From contig JANXTM010000187.1 in assembly GCA_025352405.1 (NCBI GenBank), positions 632 through 64,631 on the forward strand: a DNA stretch of 64,000 nucleotides, given 5' to 3'. This DNA is from Polaromonas sp. Lineage in GTDB: Bacteria > Pseudomonadota > Gammaproteobacteria > Burkholderiales > Burkholderiaceae_C. The translations under genes and the position numbers were made by a program. Below the pieces are notes generated by a model. The model did no database searches. It saw only the letters and a list, made by a program, of their open reading frames with translations, and had not been told where the DNA came from. This document shows, one piece after another, positions 2,802-64,000 of the stretch; the first letter of the stretch is position 1, and each line of letters opens with the position of its first letter.

Positions 2802-3656
2802 TTGCGCGCCATGAAAGCAGTGTTCCAGTTGCTACGCGAATACCTGCTCGCCGTGCAGTTTTTTACCCGCATCCCAGTCACCGGCTGTTTGGCGCAATGG
2901 GTCGGGTTCAGCCCAGAATTGCTACGCGCCAGCGCAGGGCACTTTCCAGGTGTTGGGCTGGTGGTTGGTGCGATAGCAGCCGCTGCGTACGGCATTACAA
3001 ACGCCCTGCTGCCCGACACCCACTTCACGCCGCTGGTGGCGGCGGTGCTGTCCACCATCGCCTCGGTGCTGCTGACGGGTGGCTTTCATGAAGACGGCCT
3101 GGCCGATGTAGCCGATGGCCTGGGCGGCAGTTACGACCGGGCGCGCGCCCTTGACATCATGAAAGACTCGCGTGTGGGCGCTTTTGGCGCTATGGCGCTG
3201 GTGTTGGCGCTGCTCGCAAAAGTCGCGTTGCTGGCCCTGCTGGGCTCGGTAGAAGGCACGCCGACCGGCTGGGACGAGGCACCGTTCAGCACCTGGTATG
3301 TCTGCGCCGCCCTGGTCGCCGGGCATGTGCTGTCGCGCGCCCTGCCGCTGCTGCTGATTGCCTGGCTGCCGCATGTCGGCGACACTGCAGCGTCCAAATC
3401 AAAACCATTGGCTGACGACCTCACCGCACGCAGCTTGTGGATTGCATTTATATGGTCGTTAATGGCCTTAGCCCTTGTTTTAACTGCGCTAGATGCTATG
3501 AATTTAATAGTAGGCTGCAGCTTTTCAATGCTGGCGCTGCTGTGGATGGGCCGCTGGCTCAAACGCCGCCTACAAGGCTTCACAGGCGATTGCCTGGGTG
3601 CGACGCAGCAAGTGTGCGAGATAGCGTTTTATCTCGGGCTGGCGATTTCCCTATGA
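2802..3656 (+). CDS. cobS: Adenosylcobinamide-GDP ribazoletransferase (cobalamin synthase)
   Basis: FFTRIP, TGGFHEDGLADVADG, IMKDSRVGAFG, GFTGDCLGA motifs; multi-pass membrane protein. Confidence 0.95.
   Translation: MRAMKAVFQLLREYLLAVQFFTRIPVTGCLAQWVGFSPELLRASAGHFPGVGLVVGAIAAAAYGITNALLPDTHFTPLVAAVLSTIASVLLTGGFHEDGLADVADGLGGSYDRARALDIMKDSRVGAFGAMALVLALLAKVALLALLGSVEGTPTGWDEAPFSTWYVCAALVAGHVLSRALPLLLIAWLPHVGDTAASKSKPLADDLTARSLWIAFIWSLMALALVLTALDAMNLIVGCSFSMLALLWMGRWLKRRLQGFTGDCLGATQQVCEIAFYLGLAISL
3447..3511 (+). repeat. Dispersed ~63-bp repeat, copy 1, in frame inside cobS
   Basis: TTTATATGGTCGTTAATGGCC-TTAGCCCTTGTTTTAACTGCGCTAGAT-GCTAT-GAATTTA-ATAGT; AT-rich patch within a GC-rich gene. 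Confidence 0.75.
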
Positions 3657-3671
3657 CGCGAAGTAAAAAGC

Positions 3672-4223
3672 GTGGGGGCTAATCTTTTTATGGTCAGGCA
3701 CGCCCAACCGCTGGTCGATGCAGGTATTTGCTACGGTCAACTGGACATGGGTGCTGACGCAAACGCCACGCTGAGCTGCGCACAAGCCCTTGCCAAAGTG
3801 CTGCCACCCAGCATCATCGTTGTCACCTCTCCGCTACAAAGATGTGAGCAGCTGGCCCGCGCATTGCTTGGCGAAAAGCCAGATTTGACCATTAAAGTGG
3901 ATACTCGCCTGCAGGAAATGAACTTCGGCACCTGGGAAGGCCAGGCCTGGGCCGACATTGCCCGCGCCGAGCTGGCGGCCTGGACCACCGATTTCGCCGA
4001 TTACCAGCCCGGCGGCAACGGTGAAAGCGTCGCCCAATTCATGGCCCGGGTCGCCTCGGCCTTCGACGAGTTGCCCAGCGCCGCAGACACCTTGTGGATT
4101 ACCCATGCCGGGGTCATGCGGGCGGTGGAACTGATCGCCGCCGGGCAACGCCAACTGCAGCGCGCAGACCAGTGGCCGATAGTTGCGCCAGCTTATGGAC
4201 AATGGTGCAAACTAGTGCTTTAG
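3672..4223 (+). CDS. cobC: Histidine phosphatase family, probable alpha-ribazole-5'-phosphate phosphatase
   Basis: RHA, SPLQRC, EMNFGTWEG, THAG motifs; directly follows cobT-cobS. Confidence 0.85.
   Translation: MGANLFMVRHAQPLVDAGICYGQLDMGADANATLSCAQALAKVLPPSIIVVTSPLQRCEQLARALLGEKPDLTIKVDTRLQEMNFGTWEGQAWADIARAELAAWTTDFADYQPGGNGESVAQFMARVASAFDELPSAADTLWITHAGVMRAVELIAAGQRQLQRADQWPIVAPAYGQWCKLVL
3833..3896 (-). repeat. Dispersed ~63-bp repeat, copy 2, inside cobC
   Basis: Reverse strand reads TTTAATGGTCAAATCTGGCT-N27-GCTCA-CATCTTT-GTAGC. Confidence 0.55.
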
Positions 4224-4261
4224 CGCCTACTGCAACCAGCACTCAAAAAAAACAACAACTC

Positions 4262-5158
4262 ATGGCAACCAACCTGGACGGACAACTCGTTGTAGCGATT
4301 TCTTCGCGTGCGCTGTTTGATCTCGAAGAAGAAAACCGCGTTTTCGAGCAGTCGGACGACCGCGAGTACATGAAGCTGCAACTTGACCGGCTGGAGCTTC
4401 CGGCCAAACCCGGCGTGGCTTTCTCGCTGGTCAAAAAACTGCTGGCCTTCAACAGCCCGGACAGCCAGCGGGTAGAGGTGGTGATCCTCTCGCGCAACGA
4501 CCCGGTGTCTGGCTTGCGGGTGTTTCGCTCGGTGCAAACCCATGCGTTAAGCGTGGCGCGCGGCGTATTTACACGTGGCCGCGAGCCTTGGCGCTACCTG
4601 TCGCCGCTGCAGGCCAACCTGTTTTTGTCAGCCAACCCTGACGACGTGAAAGCCGCACTGCTGATGGGCTTTCCAGCCGCTACCGTGGCCACGCACTCAG
4701 TACGCGCCAGAGACAACTACCCCAATGAAGTACGCATTGCTTTTGACGGCGATGCCGTGCTGTTTTCCGACGAGGCCGAACAGGTCTTTCAACGCGATGG
4801 TTTGCCGGCCTTTCAGCAGCATGAGCGCGACAAGGCTGTGCTGCCGCTGCCCGATGGCCCCTTCAAGCCCCTGCTGATCGCCCTGCAACGCCTGCAGCAG
4901 GCTGGCACACCATCAATGCGGCTGCGCACCGCACTGGTCACTGCGAGAAGCGCCCCAGCTCACGAGCGCGCCATTCGCACGCTCATGAACTGGAACATCG
5001 AGGTCGATGAAGCGATGTTTTTGGGTGGCCTGGCCAAGGGCGAGTTTTTGCGCGAATTCGAGCCTGACTTTTTCTTTGACGACCAGACTGGCCACGTCAA
5101 CTCAGCCGCCGAGCATGTGCCCGCAGGTCATGTTGCCAGCGGCGTGTCCAATGGCTGA
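4262..5158 (+). CDS. 5'-nucleotidase (5-nucleotidase family, HAD-like)
   Basis: AISSRALFD, AFDGDAVLFSDEAE, TARSAP, FFDDQ motifs; ATG at 4262 preferred over the ORF-track start at 4094, which overlaps cobC. Confidence 0.88.
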   Translation: MATNLDGQLVVAISSRALFDLEEENRVFEQSDDREYMKLQLDRLELPAKPGVAFSLVKKLLAFNSPDSQRVEVVILSRNDPVSGLRVFRSVQTHALSVARGVFTRGREPWRYLSPLQANLFLSANPDDVKAALLMGFPAATVATHSVRARDNYPNEVRIAFDGDAVLFSDEAEQVFQRDGLPAFQQHERDKAVLPLPDGPFKPLLIALQRLQQAGTPSMRLRTALVTARSAPAHERAIRTLMNWNIEVDEAMFLGGLAKGEFLREFEPDFFFDDQTGHVNSAAEHVPAGHVASGVSNG

Positions 5159-5326
5159 TGCAGACGGCTGCGGAGTCTCATGCAGGCAAAGAAGGCCCTG
5201 TCCGGCATTGGTTTACAGTAACTTCAACATCCGTTCACGCCGCTATGATTTGCTGCTGACGTCAGGTCTGACGACATCCCTTTCCAACCGGGCGCGAACT
5301 AGCGCCGTCCAACCGAAAAGCACACC

Positions 5327-5911
5327 ATGAAAACTTCACGAACAACCTCATTTCTCTCAGCCAGCTTGTTAAGCCTTAGCCTGGCGGCCTGCGGCGGTGG
5401 CAGTGCCGGATCAGACGGGACAGTGAGCGGCACGGTCACAGGGCTGGGCAGTGGCCTGAATTTAATGTTGCAAAACAATGGTGTCGACACCATTGCGGTG
5501 GCCAGCAACGGGACCTTCGCCTTCCCCACAAAACTTTCATCTCTCGGGCCCTTCAGCGTGACGGTATCGACGCAGCCCATTGGGCAATTTTGTACCCTGG
5601 CACGCGCCACAGGTGTCATTCCCACAGATGGCAACCAGGCCAACGCAACCGTCGTGGCGTGTGCGGCAAACTCTTTGGGTGCAACGGTGTCAGGCCTGAA
5701 CGCCGGCAGCACGGTGACTTTGAACAATGCGGCTGTGCAGATGGTGGTGAATGCAAACGGCGTGTCAACTTTCCCCGGAATCTTGGCTGGTGGCACAACC
5801 TTCACTTTGGCTGTTGCTGCACAGCCCGCAACGCAGGTCTGCACCCTGTCCAACGCCAGCGGAACCATCACGGCCGGCGTCCAGTCGCTTGCTACATTGA
5901 ACTGCATTTAA
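5327..5911 (+). CDS. Lipoprotein made of two tandem ~80-aa beta-rich repeats
   Basis: Lipobox LAAC-GGG; two repeats of TVSGL..G..L.L.NN....V.ANG..F..QP..Q.C...C type. Confidence 0.75.
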   Translation: MKTSRTTSFLSASLLSLSLAACGGGSAGSDGTVSGTVTGLGSGLNLMLQNNGVDTIAVASNGTFAFPTKLSSLGPFSVTVSTQPIGQFCTLARATGVIPTDGNQANATVVACAANSLGATVSGLNAGSTVTLNNAAVQMVVNANGVSTFPGILAGGTTFTLAVAAQPATQVCTLSNASGTITAGVQSLATLNCI

Positions 5912-5957
5912 CGGATCAGCCGTCGAAATTTCGGGTCTGAGTTTCATAACAGGGTGC

Positions 5958-7769
5958 ATGCAAATGCTTTTGGCCAAAAAACTTTCTGCATTCAAAACCT
6001 TCAGCGGCCGCGTCTGGGCTTTGTCGGCACCCTATTTCAGATCTGAAGACAAGTGGAAGGCACGCGGGCTGCTGGCGGCCATTGTGGTGCTGAATTTGGC
6101 GGCGGTGTACATGCTGGTGCTGCTCAATGAGTGGAACCGGGTGTTTTATGACGCACTGCAAAACAAGGACCAACCAGTTTTCTGGACGCAGCTGGGGCGC
6201 TTCACCTATCTGGCCTTTGCCTTCATCATCATTGCGGTGTACCGCTTCTACCTGACGCAACTGCTCGAAGTGCGCTGGCGTGCCTGGATGACGGCGCACT
6301 ACCTCCAGCGCTGGCTGGCCGACCATGCGTTTTACACCCTGGAGCTGGCGCGCTTCTCAGGCGAAAAAAACACCGCCGACAACCCCGACCAGCGGATTCA
6401 GGAAGACATCAACCTGTTCACCACCTACAGCATTTCGCTGAGCATGGGCTTGCTCAATGCCGTGGTGACCTTACTGAGTTTTGTCGGCATTTTGTGGTCG
6501 CTTTCGGGCGCTTTTTCTTTCACGCTGGGCGGCAGCAGTTACAACATACCGGGTTTCATGGTCTGGATGGCTGTGCTGTATTGCGCTGTAGGCAGCGTCA
6601 TCACACATTACATTGGCCGGCCGCAGATCAAGCTCAACTACCAGCAGCAGCGCTATGAGGCTGACTTTCGGCACCACATGGTGCGGGTACGCGAATACAG
6701 CGAATCAATCGCGCTGGACAAAGGTGAAGCGGTCGAGCGCGCGCAACTGGACCTGCGTTTTTCCAGCGTTCTTGCGAACTACCTGCAGCTGATCAAGAAG
6801 CAGAAAAACCTGGTCTGGTTTACCAACTTTTTTGGCCAGGCCGCCGTGGTGTTTCCGTTCATTGTGGCGGCGCCGCGTTTTTTCAGCGGTGCCATCCAGC
6901 TCGGTGAGCTGATGCAGATATCCTCTGCCTTTGGGCGGGTGCAAGACTCGCTCAGCTGGCTGGTTGACAACTACAGCAACCTCGCCGCCTGGCGCGCCAC
7001 GACCGACCGTCTGACCAGTTTTGAGGACAACATAACGGCTGCGGGGCAGAAAACACGGGCGCATTCCGCTATCAATTCAGAAGCAGACAACGCACAGGTT
7101 GCAACAGCCTCAAATGCACTTTCTGCCAGTGATCTGACTTTGAGCCTACCCGCTGGTCAGGTACTGCTGAGTGATATGTCTTTGAGCGCCAACCCCGGGG
7201 ATAGCGTGCTGTTCAAGGGGCCATCGGGCAGTGGGAAATCGACCCTGTTTCGGGCGTTTGCGGGTATCTGGCCGTTCACAAAAGGCCACACCCACCTGCC
7301 GCAGGGCGCGATGTTTATTCCCCAGCGTCCCTACTTCCCCGATGGGCTGTTGCGCGATGCGCTGGCCTACCCGCAACCCACCGCGCGGTACAGCGACGAG
7401 GCGCTCAAGCAGGCCCTGCAGGACGCCATGCTGCCGCAACTCATCAGCCGTCTGGACGACCAGGACGCGTGGAGCCAAAAGCTGTCTGGCGGCGAACAAC
7501 AGCGGCTGGCCATTGCACGCGTGCTGCTCAAAAAACCGCAATGGATTTTTGCCGATGAAGCCACCAGTGCCCTCGATGAGCCCGCTGAAAAAGCACTTTA
7601 CGAAAAACTGCAGACGCATGTGGCTACCGTGCATGGCGGCATGGTGTCAATTGCCCACCGCCCCAGCGTGGCGGCTTTTCACAACCGGCAATGGACGCTT
7701 GAAAAACTGCCCACGGATGCGCCATCCCTGTACGGCCTGACTGACAGTCCGCTGAAAAATTCGCCCTGA
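5958..7769 (+). CDS. ABC transporter fused permease/ATPase, YddA/BacA(Rv1819c)-like (ABCD/SbmA-type TMD)
   Basis: DNPDQRIQED, EADFR TMD motifs; Walker A GPSGSGKS, LSGGEQQR, DEATSALD. Confidence 0.9.
   Translation: MQMLLAKKLSAFKTFSGRVWALSAPYFRSEDKWKARGLLAAIVVLNLAAVYMLVLLNEWNRVFYDALQNKDQPVFWTQLGRFTYLAFAFIIIAVYRFYLTQLLEVRWRAWMTAHYLQRWLADHAFYTLELARFSGEKNTADNPDQRIQEDINLFTTYSISLSMGLLNAVVTLLSFVGILWSLSGAFSFTLGGSSYNIPGFMVWMAVLYCAVGSVITHYIGRPQIKLNYQQQRYEADFRHHMVRVREYSESIALDKGEAVERAQLDLRFSSVLANYLQLIKKQKNLVWFTNFFGQAAVVFPFIVAAPRFFSGAIQLGELMQISSAFGRVQDSLSWLVDNYSNLAAWRATTDRLTSFEDNITAAGQKTRAHSAINSEADNAQVATASNALSASDLTLSLPAGQVLLSDMSLSANPGDSVLFKGPSGSGKSTLFRAFAGIWPFTKGHTHLPQGAMFIPQRPYFPDGLLRDALAYPQPTARYSDEALKQALQDAMLPQLISRLDDQDAWSQKLSGGEQQRLAIARVLLKKPQWIFADEATSALDEPAEKALYEKLQTHVATVHGGMVSIAHRPSVAAFHNRQWTLEKLPTDAPSLYGLTDSPLKNSP
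7037..7085 (+). repeat. Dispersed ~63-bp repeat, copy 3, in the TMD-NBD linker of the ABC transporter
   Basis: GGCTGCGGGGCAGAAAACACGGGCGCATTCC-GCTAT-CAATTCA-GAAGC; closely matches the copy at 39562-39608. Confidence 0.65.
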
Positions 7770-7794
7770 GTCAGCTCTGTAAATACGCCAGCGA

Positions 7795-9420
7795 ATGCCT
7801 GAAGAAATAAAACCCGGCCGCTCATCCGATCAGCTGTCCGCTTGGGCCCCTATCAGGCAACCAGTATTCCGCATGCTGTGGGGCACCTGGCTGGCGGCCA
7901 ACATCTGCATGTGGATGAGCGACGTCGCAGCAGCCTGGATGATGACCTCCATGACCACCACGCCGCTGTGGGTGGCGCTGGTGCAAACGTCGGCCACCTT
8001 GCCGGTGTTTTTACTCGGCTTGCCAAGCGGCGCCCTGGCCGACATCCTGGACCGCAGGCGCTACTTCATCCTGACGCAGTTCTGGATTGCGACGGTGGCC
8101 ACGCTGCTGTGCCTCACGGTGATTTCAGGCGTCATGACGCCGCCGTTGCTGCTGGCCCTGACCTTTGCCAACGGCGTAGGCCTGGCGATGCGCTGGCCGG
8201 TGTTTGCAGCCATCGTGCCCGAGCTGGTGCCGCGGGCGCAGTTGCCGGCAGCGCTGGCGCTTAACGGCATCGCCATGAATGCGTCACGCATCGTCGGCCC
8301 GCTCGTGGCCGGTGCGCTAATTGCCAGTGCCGGCACCGAATATGTGTTTGTGCTCAACGCCGTGTTGTCGGTTATTTCGGGCTTTGTCATCATGCGCTGG
8401 CGGCGCGTGCATGTGCCCAGCCCGCTGGGCCGCGAGCGGTTGCTCAGTGCAATGCGCGTGGGACTGCAGTTTGTACGCCAGTCCAGTCGGCTGCGTGCTG
8501 TGCTGCTGCGGGTGTCGCTGTTTTTTCTGCATTCCACCGCGTTACTGGCCCTGCTGCCCCTGGTGGCACGCAACCTGCACACCGGTGATGCAGGCACCTT
8601 CACGCTGCTGCTCGCCGCCATGGGGGTGGGTGCGATTGGCGCGGCCCTGTACCTGCCGCGCCTCAGGCAACTGATGCCGCGTGACACGCTGGTGCTGCGC
8701 TCAACCATACTTCAGTCCGTGTCTACCGCCGTCATGGCGCTGGCGCCCAACGCCTGGGTGGCGGTGCCCGCCATGCTGCTCAATGGCATGGCCTGGATTT
8801 GCTGCGCCAACTCGCTCAGCGTGTCGGCGCAACTTTCTTTGCCCGACTGGGTGCGCGCGCGCGGTATGTCGATGTACCAGATGGCCATCATGGGGGCCAG
8901 TGCGCTGGGCGCGGCGCTATGGGGTCAGATCGCCACGCTGACCAGCGTCTCCACGGGCCTGCTGGTAGCCGCTGCGAGCGGCACGGTCTGCATGCTGCTC
9001 GCACAAAGGCAGGTGGTGGACCTGAGCATTGAGGAAGACCTGACGCCCTCACGCGAGTTCAAGGCACCGGTGGCAGACGCCCCGCCCGGCGCAGGCCATG
9101 TGGTGGTGACTATTGACTACCTGATCGATCCGCTGCGCAGCCATGATTTTCACGCCGTGATGCAAGAAAGTCGCCGCAGCCGCCTGCGTCAGGGTGCGCT
9201 TGAATGGGCGCTGCTGCGCGACATCGGCACGCCGGGGCGGTATGTCGAGCAGATCATTGACGAGTCTTGGACCGAACATCTGCGCCGGTTTGACCGGGTG
9301 ACGGCCAGCGACGTGGCGCTGCGCGAACGCAAACTGGCCTTTCACATTGGAGACGTACCGCCGCAGGTGCAGCGCTGTGTGGTGGAAGGCGCTTTACGCC
9401 TTCAGGTTTTTTCGGCGTAG
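7795..9420 (+). CDS. MFS transporter (MFS_3/DUF894 type) with C-terminal soluble domain
   Basis: 12-TM hydrophobic pattern, [11 protein letters not shown] motif; 3' end overlaps the queC 3' end by 19 nt. Confidence 0.88.
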
Positions 9421-31702: not shown

Positions 31703-32209
31703 ATGGAACAAATCGACAAAAAAGGAGGTCTGGAAGGCTTGGATCTGACAGACCTCAAACTACTTGAAGCATTGCAAACCGATGCATCGCTGAGCAACCA
31801 GGCCCTGGCAGAGCGCGTACACATCTCGCCGCCCACCTGCCTGCGCCGTGTCAAGCGGCTGCGCGATATGGGACTGGTTGAGCGTCAAATCGCCCTGCTG
31901 AGCCCCGACAAGCTGTCTGCGCTGCTCGGGCACGGCTTAACGGCGATCATTGAAATCACGCTGGACCGACAGGCTGTCGGGCAGCTGGAGGCATTTGAGG
32001 AAAAGGTCGCACTGGAGCGTGCTGTGCAGCAGTGCTACCGGGTGTCACCTGGCCCGGATTTCATACTGCTGGTGCATGTGCTGGACATGCCGCATTACCT
32101 AACCATGACGCAGCGGCTTTTCACCAATGACGCCAATGTACGCAATGTAAAGGCTTTCTTCAGCACCAAGCGCTCAAAGTTTGAGCCAAAAGTGCTTCTT
32201 GATCAATAA
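31703..32209 (+). CDS. Lrp/AsnC family regulator divergent from glmS
   Basis: LDLTDLKLLEALQ, HTH SPPTCLRRVKRL, C-terminal RAM domain. Confidence 0.92.
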   Translation: MEQIDKKGGLEGLDLTDLKLLEALQTDASLSNQALAERVHISPPTCLRRVKRLRDMGLVERQIALLSPDKLSALLGHGLTAIIEITLDRQAVGQLEAFEEKVALERAVQQCYRVSPGPDFILLVHVLDMPHYLTMTQRLFTNDANVRNVKAFFSTKRSKFEPKVLLDQ

Positions 32210-32242
32210 AAACGGGGGCTACGCGCTATAAAAACCGCAGCA
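32180..32242 (+). repeat. Dispersed ~63-bp repeat, copy 4, straddling the Lrp stop codon
   Basis: TTTGAGCCAAAAGTGCT-N28-GCTAT-AAAAACC-GCAGC; supplies the last codons (FEPKVLLDQ*). Confidence 0.65.
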
Positions 32243-36641: not shown

Positions 36642-36701
36642 AGTCTCTAATTTAGCGTGTTTGGATAACGTCAGACCTACCGACCCGGCAGAAACCCATT
36701 T

Positions 36702-36765
36702 TTTAGGTCAATTTAGCCCTTATCGGTAGCGAATACGGAGGCAATTCGCTATGAATTAGGTAGCA
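36702..36765 (+). repeat. Dispersed ~63-bp repeat, copy 5, intergenic
   Basis: TTTAGGTCAATTTAGCC-N29-GCTAT-GAATTAG-GTAGC. Confidence 0.75.
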
Positions 36766-36822
36766 AATAAAAAATCAGGCCCTGTTGCCTTGCATACCCC
36801 AGTGGAGTGGCGGCATGCCAAA

Positions 36823-37156: not shown

Positions 37157-37191
37157 CCGCCCACTGTCGTTTGCAGGAACTGGTGCGGTAG

Positions 37192-39309: not shown

Positions 39310-39972
39310 ATGGACAAATTATTAGACCGTTCAAACGACAAATCCGGCAGGCGCAAAGCACTCATTGAGGAACGCCTCAATCTGCCAGACCGACTGCAGC
39401 GTGCTGACCTGCTGCAGCGCGTGATGCGCATCTGGCTGTTTGGCCGTACCGACGAAGTGATAGGTGCCTACTGGCCCATCAAGGGCGAATTTGACCCCTT
39501 ACCCGCGCTTTACCGCTGGCAGGAAGATGCCATTTTGAATGAGTTTTCACAATCAGAAGGTGGCCTGCGGCAGGAACCACGGGCACAACTAGCTACAGAA
39601 AGCATAGCAGGCCGCTCTCCCCGCAAGATTGGACTGCCGGTGGTCGACAAGGTTCATAAAACCTTGACATTTCATGCCTGGTACCCCGGTTGCCCCATGG
39701 AAGAAGACGCCTACGGCATTCCAAAACCCAAAAACACGGAAGTCATCGTGCCCACGCTGCTGTTTGTGCCCTGCGTGGGCTATGGGCCGGGGGGCTACCG
39801 GCTCGGTTATGGCGGTGGTTTTTATGACCGCACACTGGCCACCTTGCAGCCGCGCCCCGTGACCGTCGGGCTGGGCTACACAAACGGCTGGCTGCCAGAT
39901 TTAGAGCCAGAAGCCCACGACATACCGCTGGACGCGCTGCTCAATGACAACGGAGTGGTCTGGCCGGTTTAA
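39310..39972 (+). CDS. 5-formyltetrahydrofolate cyclo-ligase with an internal insertion
   Basis: GEFDP, IPKP, VPCVG, RLGYGGGFYDRTL, HDIPLD. Confidence 0.92.
   Translation: MDKLLDRSNDKSGRRKALIEERLNLPDRLQRADLLQRVMRIWLFGRTDEVIGAYWPIKGEFDPLPALYRWQEDAILNEFSQSEGGLRQEPRAQLATESIAGRSPRKIGLPVVDKVHKTLTFHAWYPGCPMEEDAYGIPKPKNTEVIVPTLLFVPCVGYGPGGYRLGYGGGFYDRTLATLQPRPVTVGLGYTNGWLPDLEPEAHDIPLDALLNDNGVVWPV
39544..39609 (+). repeat. Dispersed ~63-bp repeat, copy 6, in-frame insertion in the cyclo-ligase
   Basis: TTTTCACAATCAGAAGGTGGCC-TGCGGCAGGAACCACGGGCACAACTA-GCTAC-AGAAAGC-ATAGC. Confidence 0.75.
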
Positions 39973-39974
39973 TG

Positions 39975-40144
39975 CCCCCACGCTTGCCCACTGCGTGTGG
40001 CTACCTGCACCTTGCAGGCCGCCGCTCGCCAGAGGCTTCGCTTCTGTCACCTGTCCAAACCTGCTTAAGCAGGTTTGGAGCCGCAGGCTCCAGCCCCGAG
40101 GGGGCCGCTGCGCCTGTGGACCGGCGAAGCCGCTTCCAGGGCCC
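39975..40144 (+). repeat. Second repeat family (CCCCCACGCT...GCCCCGAGGGG...), copy A, with an ~88-bp nested insert
   Basis: Aligns with 42414-42492; the insert contains the perfect 26-bp palindrome TCCAAACCTGCTTAAGCAGGTTTGGA (40054-40079). Confidence 0.8.
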
Positions 40145-40245
40145 TCGTTTGAAAAGAAAGGTGTCCGCCCATCCGCATACCATCGTGTTTGCCAACCGTT
40201 CATAATCAGGGCTCACTTCATCGCTGGCTCTGGTAGTTCGGGACT

Positions 40246-58741: not shown

Positions 58742-58881
58742 GACAGAAGTGGATGAGTCAGTTGATTGATTAATGCGTTTATAGAATGAATAGCGTACCG
58801 CGAATTCATTGGACCGGAAAGCCCCCCTGACGGATCATTGCATCTCTTTCCACGAATTTCGGTCTTTTTTTGGAGAACACC

Positions 58882-59511
58882 ATGGACCACCACCTCACTA
58901 CGCACCGCACGGCCATTGCCACCACCCTGCCCGCACAACATACGGCCGATACCGACCCGGCCTCAAGCTACCGCAAACTGGACGCCGGCAAGGCTGTCAC
59001 ATTGCGTGCCACGCAGCTCAGTGTGTTGCGTATTGCGCATGGCCGTGTGTGGGCCACCCTGAGCGACGACGGCCCCTACAGCCGGGTGCTGGCTGGTGAC
59101 CACTTTTTAAGCCGGGGTCAAAGCCTGACCCTGCTGCCCGGCCAGGAACTGGTGATGGAATCCTTCGAATCATCGGCCAGCAGCCGCACCGCAACGGCGC
59201 ACTTCAGCTGGGAAACCCCCGGTGTGGCAGCCAGCGCATTGCAAGATGCCCAGCCTGTGCACCAGGCTGTCGGTTTGGGTGTGCTCCAGCCACTGCGTGA
59301 TTTACGTCACGCACTGGGCCTGGTGGCGGGCGCTTCCGGTCGGCTGGTGCAGAGGCTCGTCCATGGCGCAGCGGCTGCCTCTGTCATGCTGCTTAATCGG
59401 GTTGCTATGCCTTTTGTAGCAGCACGCCCCGGTACTTTGTGCCCAGACGGGTCTTTTGGCATCACAAAAAAGCATGGTGCAACGCGAGCAGCCCGCTGCA
59501 GCGCACGCTAA
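58882..59511 (+). CDS. DUF2917 (cupin-like) domain protein
   Basis: LRIAHGRVWAT...DHFL..GQSLTL..GQELVME; GGAG RBS. Confidence 0.8.
   Translation: MDHHLTTHRTAIATTLPAQHTADTDPASSYRKLDAGKAVTLRATQLSVLRIAHGRVWATLSDDGPYSRVLAGDHFLSRGQSLTLLPGQELVMESFESSASSRTATAHFSWETPGVAASALQDAQPVHQAVGLGVLQPLRDLRHALGLVAGASGRLVQRLVHGAAAASVMLLNRVAMPFVAARPGTLCPDGSFGITKKHGATRAARCSAR
59403..59470 (-). repeat. Dispersed ~63-bp repeat, copy 7, in the DUF2917 C-terminal tail
   Basis: Plus strand GCTAT-GCCTTTT-GTAGC followed by AGCACGCCCC...GGTCTTTTGGCATCACAAAA. Confidence 0.7.
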
Positions 59512-60201: not shown

Positions 60202-61221
60202 ATGTCCAAGGCATTCGCCAGTCAGTCCGATCTCACCGACAAAACCATTACCTTTGAGCAGCTCAGTGCCCACTGCTGGGCCTACACCGCCGAGGGCGAC
60301 CCCAACTCCGGCGTGATCATCGGCGACAAGTTCATCATGGTCAGCGACGCCACCGCGACCCCGGCCATGGCGCAAGACCTGATTGCCCGAATTCGCGCCG
60401 TCAGCGACAATCCCATCAAATATGTTCTGCTGACCCACTACCACGCCGTCAGGGTGCTGGGCGCCAGCGCCTACATTGCAGAGGGTGCCACCGAAATCAT
60501 CGCCAGCCAGGGCACCTATGAGCTGATCGTGGAGCGCGGTGCGCAGGACATGCAAAGCGAGATGGAGCGCTTTCCAAGGCTGTTTCGCAACGCAGACAGC
60601 GTGCCTGGCCTGACCTGGCCCACGATGGTGATTGGCGGCGGCAACCCCGCAAGCCTGGTAACTGACGCGGATGGCCGCGTCAGGGGCGAAGTCCCCGGCA
60701 AGCTGCTGCTGGATCTGGGGGGCGTCAAGGTGCAGATCTGGCACCCGGGGCCTGGTCATACACGCGGCGACACGATTGCCTGGGTTGAAGAAGAAAAAGT
60801 ACTGTTTTCAGGCGACCTGGTCGAGTACGAAGCAGGCGTGTACACCGGCGATGCACAGCTCGCGGAATGGCCCGCCACGCTGGAAGCCCTGCGCGCCCTG
60901 AACGCCGAAGCCATCGTGCCCGGCCGGGGCGAAGCCATGAAAGGCGCTGCCAATGTCCATAAAGCGCTTGATTACACCAAGCGCTGGGTCGAAACGCTGT
61001 TTCAGGCGGGCAAGGAAGCGGCGCATGTTGGCATGGACCTGAAGGCCGCCATGGCCCACACGCGCAAGGCCATGGACCCCATTTTCGGCCATGTCTTTAT
61101 TTACGAGCACTGCCTGCCATTTGACGTGAGCCGCGCGTTTGACGAAGCCAGCGGCATCAAAAACCCGCGCATCTGGACCGCCGAGCGGGACAAGGCCATG
61201 TGGGACGCGCTTCAAGCCTGA
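60202..61221 (+). CDS. MBL-fold metallo-hydrolase
   Basis: THYHAVR, GHTRGD, SGDL, PGRG. Confidence 0.88.
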   Translation: MSKAFASQSDLTDKTITFEQLSAHCWAYTAEGDPNSGVIIGDKFIMVSDATATPAMAQDLIARIRAVSDNPIKYVLLTHYHAVRVLGASAYIAEGATEIIASQGTYELIVERGAQDMQSEMERFPRLFRNADSVPGLTWPTMVIGGGNPASLVTDADGRVRGEVPGKLLLDLGGVKVQIWHPGPGHTRGDTIAWVEEEKVLFSGDLVEYEAGVYTGDAQLAEWPATLEALRALNAEAIVPGRGEAMKGAANVHKALDYTKRWVETLFQAGKEAAHVGMDLKAAMAHTRKAMDPIFGHVFIYEHCLPFDVSRAFDEASGIKNPRIWTAERDKAMWDALQA

Positions 61222-61239
61222 AGTGGGGTGCCCGGAACG

Positions 61240-61307
61240 GGCTTCAGGCTTCAGGCTTCAGGCTTCAGGCTTCAGGCTTCAGGCTTCAGGCTTCAGGCTT
61301 CAGGCTT
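61240..61307. repeat. Heptamer VNTR (GGCTTCA)9 plus partial GGCTT
   Basis: Nine perfect copies at 61240-61302; the last one contains the BLUF stop codon. Confidence 0.97.
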
Positions 61308-61707
61308 GCAGGTTCAGGGTGGCGATCAAGGCCATGAACACGTCAACCCCCTGTTGCCCGTTGAGTTGCTCCAGCCGCTCCAGCACACCGATTTCTTCTA
61401 TGTTCGAGAAAGCCATTGAGAAATGGTTGAACCGGCGCCCGGGCAGCGGGCCGTGGTGAAACATTTCAATGTTGAAATGACGCGCGTCCTGGTAGATACG
61501 CTCCATCAGTGCCAGCACGTCCTTTTGTCTGCCTTCAATTTGCTGGCAAAAGCGTACGCCATCAAAAATCAGTACCCCTGTGATGTCGCAAGCCGCATTG
61601 GCAATGCGCGCATGCGCGGCCACGGCCCCCACAATAGCAAGCGGCGCGTCAGCCGCCATGGTGCTCACGTAAAGAATTTCATACGTTTTTGAGGCTGTTT
61701 TCATCAC
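61300..61707 (-). CDS. Stand-alone BLUF blue-light photoreceptor
   Basis: Conserved Tyr (ILYVS), N...ITGVL, F.Q.IEG (Gln), D.RH, RRF..FSM. Confidence 0.9.
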   Translation of the reverse strand: MMKTASKTYEILYVSTMAADAPLAIVGAVAAHARIANAACDITGVLIFDGVRFCQQIEGRQKDVLALMERIYQDARHFNIEMFHHGPLPGRRFNHFSMAFSNIEEIGVLERLEQLNGQQGVDVFMALIATLNLQA

Positions 61708-61832
61708 GGCTGGTCAATTGAGTGGGCTGGTGTCACGTGGCCATGTTAGGCGACGCGGCACTTTTACATTCAGACCGATGGCTGGAGCGCCCCAACTTCT
61801 GGTGGCACAGTTTCTGGTAACACGACGCCCCG

Positions 61833-62009
61833 CGGCACACCGCCGACGCGCTGGGCAGCCCACCGCTGCACACCAGAAAAACAGTGCGCAAGCAACACCG
61901 CGAGGGCCTGCACGGGATGAGAAACGGGCGGCTGCCCTTGCTCAATATCAACGCACTCAAACGCATTGCCAACCATGCCGACAGGTCGCCCAAAAAAGTG
62001 CCTTTGCTG
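61833..62009 (+). pseudogene. Crp/Fnr-family regulator remnant (C-terminal HTH only)
   Basis: RHTADALGSPPLHTRKTVRKQHREGLHGMRNGRLPLLNINALKRIA...VPLL resembles the Crp HTH (QHIADALGLSLVHTNKTLR..GL...GRL.LLN..AL); upstream in-frame TAA, no cNMP domain, no stop at the expected end. Confidence 0.6.
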
Positions 62010-62024
62010 TCGCGTCAACCGGTG

Positions 62025-62963
62025 TTAGCCGTCGATTTGGTTCGCCAGCGCGCGGAAGTCCTGCTCATAGCCTTTGAGTACACCCAGCGCTTTTCTGCGC
62101 TGCGATGCAGTGGTGCTGTTGTGCAGTTCAGCCATGGCCCGGCAGCCTTCCTGGGTGATCTTTTCAAGGTAGTCGCGGTAGGCTGCGTCAGGCGAGTCCA
62201 GCGTTCGCTCCAACAGTGCCCGCACATCTGTCCGGGCTGCGGCCAGATTGCCCGGCGTCAATGCGCGCAGGGTTTGCAGCGCGTCTTGCTGGCGGCGCAC
62301 CCTCTCGGCGTAGGCCAGCGCGGCATTGAAACCCGTCTGGTCTATCAACTGGCCAATGCGCTTGAGCTGCTGATTGTCCAATGGGCCGTACAGCATGTCA
62401 GCGCGGCTGACGGCCTGCTCGTAGCGCCTGGTGCGTACGGCGTCTGGCGTCGCGTCTATAAAGTCTTTGCGGTAGTCAGCATTGCCGCGGGAAAACTTGC
62501 GTTGCATGTGCTGCAGCTGTTCCGCTTGAAGGCTGATGGCCAGTGCCGCCACGGCGGGCTCGGCCCGGCTGGACACCACCTGCAACTTGCGGCGCACGTC
62601 CAGCACCACCGTACAGGCCTGGGCGGGGGTGATGTTTACCTGCATGAGGGGCTGCAGCTTGTACAGCAGATCGGCATATGCGGGAAGCTGGGTCTGACGG
62701 TGCCAGCCTTGCAAGCGGTTCAGGTCAGCCTTGACCTGCAGGCTTTGGGCGTCCGTGAAGTCTGCATACCCGTCGAGGTACCAATAGGCGAGCGACGGTG
62801 CCTGGCTGTAGCCAATTTTCACGGCGCTGCAAGCTGACACCAGAGCGGCCAGCGCCAGCACAGAGATAATCCCGAACCGACAGCAGATGGCTGGCAGAAT
62901 CTGCCCTGCAAGCCGGGTTTTTAGACCCGAACCCAACCTCGAAAAATTCACAGGAAACAGCAT
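62025..62963 (-). CDS. DUF6279-type lipoprotein (start uncertain)
   Basis: Lipobox VSAC-SAVKIGY, YWYLDGY, WHR..QLP; helical body; conserved neighbour type of glmU (recollection). Confidence 0.75.
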   Translation of the reverse strand: MLFPVNFSRLGSGLKTRLAGQILPAICCRFGIISVLALAALVSACSAVKIGYSQAPSLAYWYLDGYADFTDAQSLQVKADLNRLQGWHRQTQLPAYADLLYKLQPLMQVNITPAQACTVVLDVRRKLQVVSSRAEPAVAALAISLQAEQLQHMQRKFSRGNADYRKDFIDATPDAVRTRRYEQAVSRADMLYGPLDNQQLKRIGQLIDQTGFNAALAYAERVRRQQDALQTLRALTPGNLAAARTDVRALLERTLDSPDAAYRDYLEKITQEGCRAMAELHNSTTASQRRKALGVLKGYEQDFRALANQIDG

Positions 62964-64000
62964 GGCAATCCAGATTGATGTCGTCATCATGGCCGCAGGC
63001 AAGGGCACGCGGATGAAAAGCACGTTGCCCAAAGTGTTACACCGATTGGGCGGCCGCGCTTTGCTGGGCCATGTGCTGGACTGCGCTGCACAGTTATCGG
63101 CGCGGCAAGCGGTCGTTGTCACGGGCCACGGCGCTATCGAAGTTGAAGCAGCCTGCGCAGCCATGGCAAGCCGTAGCGGCTATTTTGACTTAAATTTTGC
63201 GCGCCAGGACCCGCAGCTGGGAACCGGCCACGCCGTGCAACAGGCTGTGCCCCTGCTTCTCGACGACGGCGTGACGCTGGTGCTGTCAGGCGACGTGCCC
63301 TTGACCCAGGCTGCTACCCTGACGTCCCTGCTGGACCAGTGCGACGGCCAGCGGCTGGCACTGCTGACCTTGAGCATGCTCGACCCCGCAGGCTACGGCC
63401 GCATCGTGCGCGCGCAAGCGCACGTTTCCGATCCTTTGCGCAGCGGCAGCGAAGCCTCAGCCCAGGTGCGCGCCATCGTCGAGCACAAGGACGCCACGCC
63501 AGCGCAGCGCCAGATCACCGAGATCTACAGCGGCATCATGGCCGTGCCCACGCGCCTGCTGCGCAGTTGGTTGGCCCGACTTGACAACAAAAATGCACAA
63601 AGCGAGTACTACCTGACCGACATCGTGAAATTTGCGGTGGCCGATGGTGTGGCCGTGGTGGCGCACCAGATTCTTGATGCCGCACAGGTCGCAGGCGTCA
63701 ACAGCCCGGTGCAACTGGCCGAACTGGAGCGCGTCTACCAGGGCCGGCTGGCCACCGCCTTTATGGAGCAAGGCGTGCGCCTGGCCGACCCGGCGCGGTT
63801 TGATGTGCGCGGCACACTGAGCTGTGGGCGCGATGTCGAGATCGACGTGAACTGCGTATTTGAAGGTACTGTTACTTTGGGCGATGGCGTACGCATCAGC
63901 GCCAACTGCGTGATCGCCAATTGCACCATTGCAGCTGGCGCCATGATTCACCCCTTCACCCACATTGACGGCGAAAAGCTCGGCGTGCAGGTGGGTGAAG
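62962..64000 (+). CDS. glmU: Bifunctional GlcNAc-1-P uridyltransferase/acetyltransferase (3' end outside the window; absent from the ORF track)
   Basis: VIMAAGKGTRMKS, QLGTGHAV, GDVP, GYGRI, EYYLTD, GVN, start of hexapeptide repeats. Confidence 0.96.
   Translation, partial: MAIQIDVVIMAAGKGTRMKSTLPKVLHRLGGRALLGHVLDCAAQLSARQAVVVTGHGAIEVEAACAAMASRSGYFDLNFARQDPQLGTGHAVQQAVPLLLDDGVTLVLSGDVPLTQAATLTSLLDQCDGQRLALLTLSMLDPAGYGRIVRAQAHVSDPLRSGSEASAQVRAIVEHKDATPAQRQITEIYSGIMAVPTRLLRSWLARLDNKNAQSEYYLTDIVKFAVADGVAVVAHQILDAAQVAGVNSPVQLAELERVYQGRLATAFMEQGVRLADPARFDVRGTLSCGRDVEIDVNCVFEGTVTLGDGVRISANCVIANCTIAAGAMIHPFTHIDGEKLGVQVGE
63132..63194 (-). repeat. Dispersed ~63-bp repeat, copy 8, in frame inside glmU
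   Basis: Reverse strand TTTAAGTCAAAATAGCC-N28-GCTTC-AACTTCG-ATAGC; encodes AIEVEAACAAMASRSGYFDLN. Confidence 0.75.

Follow-up and report, generated by a model that had tools for sequence, protein, structure and literature searches.

The window analysed here is a 64,000-nt stretch of Polaromonas sp. DNA in which a first-pass annotation had placed eight copies of a short dispersed repeat. All eight were found at these positions or within a few bases of them. The genes had been assigned correctly, and seven of the eight copies lie in frame within coding sequence, that of glmU included. The copies are given below with their match to a profile built from other genomes.

c1, 3447..3514, plus strand: in cobS (2802-3656), frame A; profile match 3450-3514, E=3e-7
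c2, 3833..3900, minus strand: in cobC (3672-4223), element on the opposite strand, frame R1; profile match 3900-3833, E=0.23
c3, 7020..7086, plus strand: in an ABC_membrane_2/SbmA-type transporter gene (5958-7769), frame A; profile match 7038-7086, E=9e-4
c4, 32172..32242, plus strand: 3' end of an Lrp/AsnC regulator gene (31703-32209); E=0.71
c5, 36695..36767, plus strand: intergenic; E=2e-4
c6, 39544..39610, plus strand: in the 5-formyltetrahydrofolate cyclo-ligase gene (39310-39972), frame A; profile match 39576-39610, E=6e-3, a score that rests on the 3' half of the copy
c7, 59401..59468, minus strand: in the gene of a DUF2917 protein (58870-59511), element on the opposite strand, frame R3; profile match 59439-59401, E=0.21
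c8, 63131..63202, minus strand: in glmU (62962 to beyond the window end), element on the opposite strand, frame R3; E=5e-5

The ABC copy c3 falls in the linker that joins the transporter's membrane domain to its ATPase domain, with domain limits taken from Pfam. c4 spans the last ~10 codons of the Lrp/AsnC gene, its stop codon and 33 nt downstream, and c5 lies ~54 nt upstream of an epimerase-family gene (35685-36641, minus strand). c7 lies in the C-terminal tail of its protein, in which the DUF2917 domain was confirmed by Pfam, and encodes VAMPFVAARPGT...

We examined whether the eight sites could be chance resemblances that a reader had picked from 128 kb of two-strand sequence. A repeat search of the window reported no family at these sites, and pairwise similarity among the eight was only modestly greater than in random sets. 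The exact core GCTAY-N7-RTAGC occurs three times against 0.09 expected, but it is only the third most enriched among all comparable palindromes. The best pattern was equally extreme in 5 of 40 random sequences, and the core alone is not significant after allowing for the number of possible patterns. Against this stands a profile that was iterated on other genomes only, with the window left out of training, and that converged on 55 sequences, all from those genomes. Across 1.92 Mb of related DNA it gave 119 matches with E<=0.01, whereas triplet-shuffled DNA gave none. When the window alone was scanned with it, the claimed eight were the eight best distinct places, with E between 3e-7 and 6e-3 for five copies and 0.2-0.7 for the other three; the first unrelated match appeared only at E=2. 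The three weak copies (c2, c4 and c7) have scoring counterparts in the same gene and position in relatives, such as a DUF2917-like ORF of related locus L008 (12353-12424) for c7, which itself scored 21.7 bits in the leave-one-out test. In that test, an HMM of seven copies returned the eighth as its top new match for six of the eight. An HMM of all eight copies matched independent Comamonadaceae DNA (best E=1.6e-5), and a second, independent locus set gave very strong matches (best E=3e-13). Chance resemblance, to which we give virtually no weight, was thus ruled out by the independent-DNA matches, the second locus set and the shuffled-DNA control. These results confirm that the eight sites are worn copies of a genuine repeated DNA element of ~66-72 bp in Polaromonas-like bacteria, in agreement with the dispersed repeat that the first-pass annotation had proposed. 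The window copies score 6-26 bits, compared to 30-48 bits in other genomes.

The consensus reads TT....GTCAAAT..GGCTCTAGCCCTTGT(N7)GCGC.AGCAGCTATT.A.TT.ATAGCA. An A- or T-tract is followed by GGCYCTAGC, an imperfect GC-rich hairpin (H1) and AGCAGCTAT-N7-ATAGCA, which forms a second hairpin (H2) with a highly variable spacer. Three TAGC/GCTA half-sites are the most conserved alignment columns. By our own reading of the alignment, AT-rich segments return every ~21-23 nt, and GC-rich blocks alternate with A/T tracts. The family resembles REPs and MITEs and is non-coding in origin. Neither a target-site duplication nor clear terminal inverted repeats were found, and searches for a transposase, a RAYT gene (linkage to which had been suggested in the first-pass annotation) or a recombinase found none.

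We also considered that the element might act through RNA, either as a hairpin that stabilises mRNA or directs its processing, or by long-range pairing; the inverted copies in cobS and cobC, separated by ~390 nt of a shared transcript, might pair in this way. The mean hairpin-potential z was -2.35 for H2, -0.97 for the H1 region and -0.06 for random 27-mers. In addition, 19 of 107 copies touch or extend over the 3' end of a gene of like orientation, cobS and cobC keep their inverted pair of copies in >15 lineages with a gap of 306-418 nt, and a related motif has been reported near gene ends, often between convergent genes (Tong et al. 2017, PMC5217627). However, RNAalifold predicted no consensus structure, pairing was no better than in column shuffles (65.0% vs 64.2%) with no covariation, and pair 27-41 was mismatched in 64 of 99 copies. 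The copies also occur in both orientations relative to transcription, and Rfam, another check raised by the first-pass annotation, held no matches to the element. We consider an RNA-level role improbable.

The family is present in Polaromonas, Rhodoferax and some Acidovorax and Comamonas, is abundant in the first two genera, and is absent altogether from many related genera. Its density is about one element per 5-8 kb. About half of the matches fall in coding sequence, in >10 gene families; this intragenic share is an overestimate, since cobS and the cyclo-ligase gene had served as anchors for the choice of loci. Of the six consensus reading frames, just two are free of stop codons, and nearly all intragenic copies use these two. 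Same-strand intragenic copies are in frame A in 27 of 30 cases; opposite-strand copies are in R3 in 18 cases and in R1 in all 11 cobC copies, where the consensus TAG has become GAG. Copies at gene ends provide the last codons and the stop.

The first-pass annotation had likened the repeat to the Rickettsia palindromic elements (RPE), which add peptide segments to proteins, and for some copies this held. As shown by protein and DNA alignments, c6 is a clean in-frame insertion of 66 bp, or 22 codons, in the cyclo-ligase gene, encoding FSQSEGGLRQEPRAQLATESIA. The site is filled in the window and in eight related loci (L001-L008), empty in ~70 other Comamonadaceae examined, and of extra length compared to solved homologs. 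The copies in L002, L003, L004, L006 and L007 are clear family members. The element can thus insert into a gene as a single unit, exactly 66 bp long. In the ABC transporter, GlmU and Cca, the copies fill variable loops. In the ABC linker, c3 lies on an 11-residue indel; two orthologs (L082 and L084) do not have these residues, and the copy in a third (L088) retains a perfect GCTATAAATTTAATAGC. In GlmU, c8 encodes GAIEVEAACAAMASRSGYFDLNF; its H2 end overlaps the conserved GHGAxxVEAA, and the remainder fills a loop whose length varies among the 27 Comamonadaceae orthologs recovered. The window GlmU is only 7 residues longer at c8 than solved GlmU structures, and the Rhodoferax glmU copies (L054 7626-7697 and L046 14158-14229) are strong members of the family. 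One end of the Cca element overlaps the conserved motif TINAIA, and the spelling ACT ATC AAT TCA ATA GCT for TINSIA is confined to lineages with a scoring element.

In contrast to these fillings, the cobS, cobC and Lrp copies overlie ancestral protein segments of unchanged length, add no segment, and recode these segments with rare AT-ending codons. In cobS, c1 encodes FIWSLMALALVLTALDAMNLIV within two ancestral membrane helices; the CobS alignment had no length difference there, and the position scores down to E=3e-13 in ~20 lineages. In cobC, c2 encodes SPLQRCEQLARALLGEKPDLT, a core histidine-phosphatase segment, with no indel compared to solved homologs. At the c2 position, scores of 16-30 bits were obtained for >20 cobC orthologs, CTA CAA AGA TGT is conserved in 28 of 61 orthologs, and GC3 (the G/C share at third codon positions) is 0.41-0.49 at codons 55-58 vs 0.77 elsewhere in the gene. 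The Lrp C-terminus KFEPxxxLxx is of equal length in four orthologs, and the copies orthologous to c4, at 16833-16904 in L008 and 10681-10752 in L004, are strong family members. Orthologs without the element have these same peptide segments, which refutes insertion at cobS, cobC and Lrp but not the existence of the element. Since these three copies add no length and those in cca and glmU overlap conserved motifs, simple insertion is not the explanation for most copies. The RPE comparison is drawn from summaries of Ogata et al. 2000, 2002 (PMC10969869, PMC3733652), in which the first-described RPE is ~150 bp. As summarised there, RPEs share with the element a dispersed palindromic repeat, an in-frame position in functional, often housekeeping, protein genes, stop-free peptide-encoding frames, and old copies common to several species. 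They differ from it in sequence and host and in being longer than ~66-72 bp; unlike the RPEs of these summaries, most intragenic copies of the element add little or no length, overlying ancestral segments and conserved motifs, and copies border gene cassettes.

Such overlay could also arise in place by molecular drive, in the manner of DNA uptake sequences (USS, DUS), with point mutations toward a preferred sequence being favoured by biased uptake or recombination. This would account for copies in conserved coding segments without length change, and it agrees with the indel-free overlay in cobS, cobC and Lrp, the restricted frames and, as we read the alignment, the alternating GC-rich blocks and A/T tracts. 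USS and DUS likewise lie in coding regions without changing length, use restricted frames and dictate protein residues. However, they have short near-invariant cores, occur about once per kb and arise in place, whereas the motif here is ~56 nt, degenerate, sparser and without a short invariant core. The clean cyclo-ligase insertion, which makes at least one copy an insertion, and the duplicated copies bordering cassettes also argue against molecular drive, and these bacteria are not known to us to take up DNA in a sequence-specific manner. We consider molecular drive very unlikely.

The c5 site is a hot spot, defined by synteny gaps and arrays in L004, L008, L009 and L010, where relatives have variable cassettes and between one and four copies; there are four in L008, one in L010 and none in L011 or L012. 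A HicAB toxin-antitoxin cassette and a restriction-modification cassette in L009 are bordered by direct repeats of 62 nt with 90% identity, and H2 is identical in the two copies on either side of the restriction-modification cassette. A second hot spot was found in L002. Variable gene cassettes at hot spots are thus bordered by same-orientation copies. Integron attC sites and integrase-less attC clusters similarly form same-orientation arrays between promoterless variable cassettes, and the cassettes between element copies include toxin-antitoxin, restriction-modification and membrane-protein genes. Unlike attC, the element has no RYYYAAC/GTTRRRY boxes, no intI gene was seen, and the copies are scattered through housekeeping genes rather than forming one array.

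Another reading is that the element is a functional site on the DNA, such as one recognised by a tyrosine-type recombinase or a nucleoid-associated protein; the first-pass annotation had offered an array of intragenic DNA-binding sites as its alternative, and this is possible. H2, with 5-bp inverted arms and a 7-bp spacer, would be the core, with the A/T tracts and the TAGC half-site upstream as accessory parts. Nucleotide-level selection would keep the element anywhere, genes included, and the element would serve as an attachment point for cassettes. The conserved half-sites, the conservation of sequence and not of base-pairing, the attachment-site-like arrangement and identical H2 pair in L009, and the ~21-23-nt return of AT-rich segments (our own reading) fit this proposal, and rare-codon versions persist across genera at orthologous positions in cobC and cca. 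On the other hand, the window copies are badly degenerate, which is unexpected under selection, the family is missing from many related genera, the H2 spacer varies, and no candidate protein was found. Moreover, hundreds of active recombination sites in both orientations would make the chromosome unstable. We regard a functional site as possible but rather unlikely.

We lean, with some reserve, towards a REP/MITE-like, recombinogenic element; in this genome it would be in decay and would persist mainly where selection on protein has kept copies. Recombination or gene conversion, possibly aided by a putative recombinase or transposase, would let the copies of one genome swap sequence. Such exchange would account for overlay on coding segments that already resembled the element (cobC, cobS, cca, glmU and lrp), which may thereby be recoded with rare codons and changed in some residues. 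It would also account for the sharing of a subtype among the copies of one genome, even between orthologous cobS and cobC copies, a concordance that covers only ~12 independent lineages and is confounded with phylogeny. The family seems inactive and, in line with the lower bit scores of the window copies, decaying in the genome of the window; intergenic copies would have been lost and genic copies held by selection on the protein, which would account for seven of the eight window copies being intragenic and degenerate. Repeats of 60 nt with 70-80% identity are poor substrates for gene conversion, which counts against a recombinogenic, decaying element. The initial resemblance of ancestral cobC to the element was only ~60% in our hand comparison, and this seems too low for seeding recombination. 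In addition, flanking synonymous sites vary in the 28 cobC lineages that share the identical rare codons, so that the codons look like the product of nucleotide-level selection, which would not be expected of an element that is only selfish or decaying.

Among known small repeats, REP and REPIN sequences (Di Nocera et al. 2013, PMC3733652; Bertels and Rainey 2011, PMC3116915) are likewise hairpin-forming chromosomal repeats with genome-specific populations, mostly near gene ends and some intragenic, whose ends can provide a stop codon. Unlike these, the element has no GTAG/CGTC tag beside a single 20-40-nt palindrome and is longer, with two hairpins, and its copies are mostly single and not inverted doublets. 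The element also differs from them in that no associated RAYT gene was found and in its much higher intragenic share. The ERIC/RU repeats of enterobacteria (Delihas 2007, PMC2759123) are also small, mobile and intergenic, with open frames and occasional intragenic copies, but are unrelated in sequence and have terminal inverted repeats, and overlay of conserved motifs is not reported for them. We found only a glancing notice of the element in the earlier literature. Tong et al. reported GCTTAT(N)5AAGCG in Acidovorax ebreus TPSY and ATAGCT(N)22CAAAAG in Polaromonas naphthalenivorans CJ2, with 114 and 125 genomic copies near gene ends, 4% and 14% of them in genes, and gave no known function (PMC5217627). 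The first motif is the H1 hairpin of the 'GCGC' subtype of the element, and five of its six occurrences in the loci examined fall inside element matches. Since the CJ2 spacing is 22 nt vs 31 nt in the element, membership of the second motif in the family is unproven. Both appear in that report only as unexplained pairs of short words; the 66-72-bp element, its in-frame copies, the insertion, the recoding and the cassettes are not described there. Polaromonas sp. JS666, which belongs to the same bacteria, has 29 copies of another repeat, BRE (Hot et al. 2011, PMC3110155). BRE differs in sequence, is GC-rich and often tandem (TTTTTTTGGCCGCGGGCCGCCCAAGGCAAAAAAGCCCCC...), and its core occurs at other places than the element in the loci examined; it is a separate family.

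The first-pass annotation had proposed that eight degenerate copies of a short repeat are dispersed over the window. A profile built from other genomes and run against a shuffled control showed that this repeat, about 66-72 bp long, is real and well above chance. The genes named for the copies were also correct. One copy is intergenic; the other seven lie in the following genes.

Genes of the window that carry a copy of the element
2802-3656, cobS
3672-4223, cobC
5958-7769, ABC_membrane_2/SbmA-type transporter gene
31703-32209, Lrp/AsnC regulator gene
39310-39972, 5-formyltetrahydrofolate cyclo-ligase gene
58870-59511, gene for a DUF2917-domain protein
62962 to beyond the window end, plus strand, glmU

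In the transporter, the copy falls in the linker that joins the membrane domain (residues 24-359) to the ATPase domain (404-537). The G+C content of the window is 59%, and the closest genome by cyclo-ligase protein is Polaromonas jejuensis (88%); an exact-protein lookup found no identical cyclo-ligase on record. DNA nearly identical to the window occurs in rock, sediment and ice metagenomes, and the sole RNA data are low-coverage metatranscriptome contigs.

A search of the window for exact and near-exact repeat families returned nothing at the eight sites, because the copies are too diverged. The palindromic core GCTAY-N7-RTAGC was found three times against 0.09 expected, and ten times against 3.8 expected when one mismatch was allowed. 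Among all palindromes of this design (spacer 0-15 nt) it ranked third in the window, and an equally extreme pattern was present in 5 of 40 composition-matched random sequences. The enrichment is thus nominal and not significant across all comparable patterns, and the core was rejected as stand-alone evidence. Pairwise local alignment of the eight segments gave a mean score of 15.6, compared with 13.7 +/- 0.8 in random sets; a small excess of this kind is expected and uninformative, since the set was picked by hand. When an HMM was built from seven copies, the eighth was the best new match in the window for six of the eight (12.8-21.7 bits).

Since hand selection could make the leave-one-out result circular, independent DNA was searched. 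The eight-copy HMM was run against 1.28 Mb around the cyclo-ligase gene from 80 Comamonadaceae genomes. It gave about 15 matches at E<0.05, most of them from Polaromonas loci and not at orthologous positions, with a consensus much sharper than the window copies. The profile was then iterated on these loci alone and converged at 55 sequences. This profile gave 119 matches at E<=0.01 in 1.92 Mb of real DNA; a control made by shuffling triplets inside 300-nt blocks yielded none, its best E being 2. Applied to the window alone, the iterated profile returned as its top eight distinct places exactly the eight copies of the first-pass annotation. Five were significant, namely those in cobS (E = 3e-7), glmU (5e-5), the intergenic spacer (2e-4), the transporter gene (9e-4) and the cyclo-ligase gene (6e-3). 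The copies in the DUF2917 gene (0.21), cobC (0.23) and lrp (0.71) were weak, and unrelated matches began at E=2. Each weak copy has a scoring counterpart at the corresponding gene position elsewhere: in more than 20 lineages for cobC, in L008 and L004 for the end of lrp (loci of related Comamonadaceae genomes, chosen, like all L-numbered loci here, around the cyclo-ligase gene or cobS), and in L008 for the DUF2917 gene, within a DUF2917-like ORF. Profile scores were 6-26 bits for the window copies versus 30-48 bits in other genomes.

The element was characterized from a gap-free, 72-column alignment of 99 non-redundant copies, with the consensus nnTTnnnnGTCAAATnnGGCTCTAGCCCTTGTnnnnnnnGCGCnAGCAGCTATTnAnTTnATAGCA. 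Mean column identity was 60%, and 2 of the 72 columns were invariant. The most conserved columns, AGC at 24-26, GCT at 49-51 and AG at 63-64, correspond to three TAGC/GCTA half-sites, and columns 11-15 exist in two forms, CAAAT and (G/C)TTTT. Columns 22-46 can fold into an imperfect, GC-rich hairpin (H1) in a register that depends on the subtype, AGCGCTT...AAGCGC versus AGCCC...GGGC; columns 49-65 can form a second hairpin (H2) with a 5-bp stem and a 7-nt loop. Mean z-scores for hairpin potential were -2.35 for H2 and -0.97 for the H1 region, compared with -0.06 for random 27-mers. The alignment showed no covariation (65.0% paired cells versus 64.2% in column shuffles), and RNAalifold predicted no structure from it. 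A fixed two-hairpin RNA or DNA structure is therefore left without covariation support, with generic hairpin potential alone remaining, and the conservation of the element is one of sequence rather than base-pairing. Neither the window nor seven copy-rich loci matched Rfam 15 at the gathering threshold, and tRNA and tmRNA scans found nothing. The element occurs about once per 5-8 kb. Polaromonas and Rhodoferax loci carry 3-7 copies per 20 kb, and single Acidovorax and Comamonas loci carry it as well; it was undetected in the Variovorax, Hydrogenophaga, Ramlibacter, Limnohabitans and Rubrivivax-group loci examined. A plasmid collection yielded one weak match, so the element is essentially chromosomal.

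Only two frames of the consensus are free of stops, while the other four meet TAG or TGA. The open forward frame A reads TCA AAT.GG CCT CTA GCC ... GCA GCT ATT GAA TT. ATA GCA, and the open reverse frame R3 reads GCT ATC AAT TCA ATA GCT GCT TGC GC. Frame A is used by 27 of 30 same-strand intragenic copies. Among opposite-strand copies, 18 are in R3, and all 11 cobC copies are in another reverse frame, R1, with TAG changed to GAG. The same usage is seen in the window, where the copies in cobS, the transporter gene, lrp and the cyclo-ligase gene use A, those in the DUF2917 gene and glmU use R3, and that in cobC uses R1. With crude gene calls, 107 matches at E<=1e-3 comprised 50 inside coding sequence, 19 over a gene 3' end in the orientation of the gene, and about 23 intergenic, a split that is biased by the choice of loci. 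This bias notwithstanding, copies were found in more than 10 gene families. Host genes confirmed by Pfam or alignment are cobS, cobC, cca and lrp, and the genes for the cyclo-ligase, GlmU, the ABC transporter and the DUF2917 protein; lnt, a short-chain dehydrogenase gene, a ROK-family gene and possibly ispE were recognized by eye only.

The copies had further been interpreted either as generating new protein segments or as an array of intragenic DNA-binding sites. Copy-by-copy ortholog alignments bear out the first reading in part: insertion explains one copy fully and three partly, and does not explain three others. The full case is the cyclo-ligase gene. Here 22 codons are added in the window and in L001-L008 (L004 has 21 and L001 more than 22), and the difference between filled and empty site is exactly 66 bp. 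In roughly 70 other Comamonadaceae the empty site reads ...GAG CCC CAG|CCC CGC CGC... without interruption. In L002-L007 the insert clearly belongs to the element family, and solved homologs do not contain the stretch. The cyclo-ligase copy is thus a clean in-frame insertion. The same loop of the cyclo-ligase in L042 (Brachymonas) has an independent extra segment of similar length (VLGSTVRAEDLERSKTKGDLNMLGG), which is not element-like by score.

In the transporter linker, orthologs in L082 and L084 are shorter by 11 residues, and L088 retains a perfect H2. GlmU of the window has only seven additional residues at the place of the element compared with solved GlmU proteins. GHGAxxVEAA is present in nearly all of the 27 Comamonadaceae GlmU orthologs recovered, which places the H2 end of the element on ancestral sequence; the loop that follows this motif is the only part that varies, by roughly 6-18 residues. 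A second lineage-specific insertion of 14 residues, HVSDPLRSGSEASA, distinguishes GlmU residues 153-166 (window 63418-63459) from all solved GlmU structures and is not element-like. In cca, a gene outside the window, the opposite strand carries the element, with H2 falling on the conserved motif RRDLTINAIA, which the six element-scoring lineages encode with AT-ending codons. Five of these six read TINSIA (ACT ATC AAT TCA/TCC ATA GCT), as does L001 in spite of having no scoring match at that spot; the sixth, L044, keeps TINAIA. The other 39 cca orthologs use ACC ATC AAC GCC ATG/ATC GCx. The remainder of the element occupies a Cca loop of about 4 to 31 residues. The Cca of L001 has an unusually long loop in the region of the TINSIA motif, and an element copy (QSAINLIAPQAIITPAIGQKDL) lies near its C-terminus at 5470-5541.

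CobS, CobC and Lrp showed no added length. The CobS segment is equally long in 80 orthologs, contributes to two membrane helices and is written in rare AT-ending codons. In CobC it is the core SPLQRCxQLA...LRPDL helix of histidine phosphatases, with no insertion relative to solved homologs. The sequence CTA CAA AGA TGT is found exactly in 28 of 61 cobC orthologs, and the rest encode the same residues as CTG CAG CGC TGC. The G or C content at third codon positions was 0.41-0.49 at these four codons, compared with 0.77 elsewhere in the gene. On a neighbour-joining tree this codon state changes about 11 times, which fits either several gains or a single large clade in which the state was lost several times. 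The C-terminus of Lrp, KFEPxxxLxx, is equal in length across four orthologs; the element begins at TTT GAG CCA AA and includes the stop codon.

Copies within one locus have a common H1 subtype. The AGCGCTT type was seen in L099-L102, L112, L123, L128 and L151, and the AGCCC type in L081, L085, L087, L090, L098, L107, L117 and L120 as well as in Polaromonas loci. The sharing extends to the copies in cobS and in cobC, each orthologous across these lineages, so the peptide encoded in cobC tracks the subtype (LALATQALQ versus LTQFLRGLR). These results suggest concerted evolution of the copies; since the independent lineages are few and phylogeny is a confounder, it is suggested and not proven. In the window the cobS copy (plus) and the cobC copy (minus) form an inverted pair at 3447-3900, about 320-390 nt apart, which spans the cobS stop and the cobC start. 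This arrangement is shared by more than 15 lineages, and many carry an additional, third copy immediately upstream of cobS. Neighbouring copies otherwise mostly share orientation or lie 0.3-3 kb apart, and the cobS/cobC pair is the sole recurrent inverted one.

The element also marks sites at which gene content differs between genomes. One hot spot is the spacer between an epimerase-family gene and slt, at 36642-37191 of the window. This spacer measures 60-73 nt without a copy in L011 and L012 and is filled by one copy in L010; two copies are present in L004, three in L009 and four in L008, all in the same orientation and 1-2 kb apart. The three copies in L009 (4748-7896) enclose a HicA/HicB toxin-antitoxin cassette and a restriction-modification cassette with a BsuBI/PstI-type restriction enzyme and a C-5 cytosine methyltransferase; the two copies around the latter are 90% identical. 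In L008, direct repeats of at least 255 nt, each consisting of the element and the slt 3' end, lie at 4125-4379, 5920-6174 and 7846-8100 and are 63-83% identical. They bound three cassettes, the first with hemerythrin-like and MgtC-like ORFs, another with a PEP-CTERM-like ORF and the last with a VanZ-family protein; of these, Pfam confirms VanZ only. It looks as if islands had integrated repeatedly at the slt end. In the window the intergenic copy is followed by what appear by eye to be broken remnants of a glyoxalase/VOC-like gene (36790-37160, minus), for example MQGTVPVLAPLNFDESLAFYTGRLGFVVMTRITDDVMG at 37040-37156, a fragment in which Pfam found no domain. They are found within roughly 500 nt of spacer that is absent from relatives or taken up there by other cassettes. 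Downstream of the cyclo-ligase gene is another hot spot, with two same-orientation copies about 1 kb apart in L002 and none in the window. This pattern is what recombination at the element, homologous or site-specific, would produce.

We favour a recombinogenic REP/MITE-like repeat. Such an element would insert as a 66-bp unit, and it survives in genes because two of its frames are open. Its copies may exchange sequence, and exchange would lay the element over coding segments that already resemble it. Since the window copies score far below those of other genomes, the family seems to be decaying here and to survive mainly under protein selection, which would explain why seven of eight window copies are in coding sequence. 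We keep alive the explanation that the element is a functional DNA site. Identical rare codons persist in cobC and cca across genera, and the initial similarity between ancestral cobC and the element was low, about 60% in a hand comparison; both points argue against a purely selfish or decaying element.

We also considered, as an improbable reading, that the element is the recombination module of an unrecognised Comamonadaceae system that works without an integron integrase. Cassettes would be captured between copies, and the same exchange would overwrite short stretches of housekeeping genes. The repeat would in this way set the codons, and in part the residues, of conserved protein motifs (TINAIA to TINSIA in Cca; SPLQRCE in CobC), with a co-evolving enzyme keeping the copies of a genome uniform.

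No integrase-like ORF was seen by eye among the array ORFs or by Pfam in five cassette ORFs, and no transposase or RAYT (the Y1 transposase associated with REPs) was found in either set or in the one ORF between an inverted pair, which by eye looks like a PlsC-type acyltransferase. Unlike integron attC sites, which have RYYYAAC ... GTTRRRY boxes and are linked to intI, the element consensus lacks such boxes; inspection by eye found neither an attC-box nor an IHF-site match in it. The cyclo-ligase junctions offer a possible 2-3-nt TC(G/T) on both sides, unconvincing as a target duplication, and the flanks have diverged.

The element was compared with known repeats. In-frame repeats in genes have been described as Rickettsia palindromic elements (RPEs) and as REPs in several species (PMC3733652), as enterobacterial ERIC/RU sequences (PMC2759123), and as the beta-proteobacterial repeat element (BRE) in these same bacteria (PMC3110155). 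Like RPEs, the element is a dispersed family with in-frame copies in genes that stay open, as in the 66-bp cyclo-ligase insertion and in more than 10 gene families. Its host is a Polaromonas-like betaproteobacterium and not Rickettsia, and it is treated as an analogue rather than a member. REP/REPIN sequences are 20-40-nt palindromes with a GTAG or CGTC tag at one end and form inverted doublets; the element has 66-72 nt, two hairpins and conserved ends GTCAAAT and (A/G)TAGCA without such a tag beside a single stem, and its copies are not so organised. Unlike MITEs, whose terminal inverted repeats match an IS, the element has ends (TT....GTCAAAT and ATAGCAAAC) that are not inverted copies of each other, and no IS element was found. 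The genome paper on Polaromonas JS666 by Mattes et al., from 2008, reportedly describes MITEs. Compared with a DNA uptake sequence, which has a short near-invariant core at high density, the element is degenerate and sparse.

BRE was rejected as the identity of the element, its sequences (Hot et al. 2011, PMC3110155) being unlike the element consensus. The BRE core AAGCCCCCTCGGGGGGCAG is present in many loci at places other than the element copies. At 40054-40079 the window has a perfect 26-nt palindrome, followed by a BRE-related stretch of roughly 70 nt (about 40087-40160). This stretch recurs non-orthologously in L003, L007 and L013 and contains GCCCCGAGGGGGCC, which matches part of the BRE core in reverse complement.

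The only earlier trace of the element that we found is in Tong et al. 2017 (PMC5217627), and it may be described elsewhere. That study reported GCTTAT(N)5AAGCG, without explanation, as a motif present 114 times in Acidovorax ebreus. Five of its six occurrences in the 1.92 Mb are inside matches of the GCGC subtype, and the motif is H1 of that subtype. A second motif of that study, ATAGCT(N)22CAAAAG (125 copies in P. naphthalenivorans, 18 in genes), resembles the element but has a spacing of 22 rather than 31. It did not occur in the loci, and the element form ATAGCT(N)31xAAAA(G/C) occurred 12 times, 11 of them in element matches. The element is thus a further case of intragenic repeats, with two unusual traits: the length-neutral overlay or recoding of conserved segments, and the cassette hot spots.

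Small intragenic repeats are usually regarded as a Rickettsia curiosity or as annotation errors. Here, one family recurs in several genera at the same sites of core enzymes, namely GlmU, the CCA-adding enzyme, CobS, CobC, folate cyclo-ligase and probably Lnt. It acts in two ways, adding a loop in some proteins and recoding a conserved segment with rare codons and altered residues in others. Should exchange between copies be what drives the recoding, the dynamics of the repeat would change proteins in a manner beyond ordinary substitution models and would give false signals in codon-usage and selection scans. The arrays of cassettes bounded by copies suggest a simple route by which defence and toxin-antitoxin genes could be gained at fixed chromosomal hot spots. 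The profile can serve as a marker for annotating these genomes and, where glacier and freshwater Comamonadaceae are assembled from metagenomes, for recognizing assembly breakpoints.

Two further features were observed towards the end of the window. A heptanucleotide tandem repeat, GGCTTCA x 11.3 with 95% matches, lies at 61240-61318, with a metallo-beta-lactamase-fold gene (60202-61221, plus) on one side and a gene for a BLUF blue-light sensor (61300-61707, minus) on the other. It overlaps the last BLUF codons, and with a unit of 7 nt a change in copy number shifts the reading frame. The mechanical 379-residue ORF at 62025-63164 (minus) is a chimera, its upstream part being the opposite-strand shadow of glmU; the downstream part alone, from about MLFPVNFSRLGS, looks real and is probably a lipoprotein gene.
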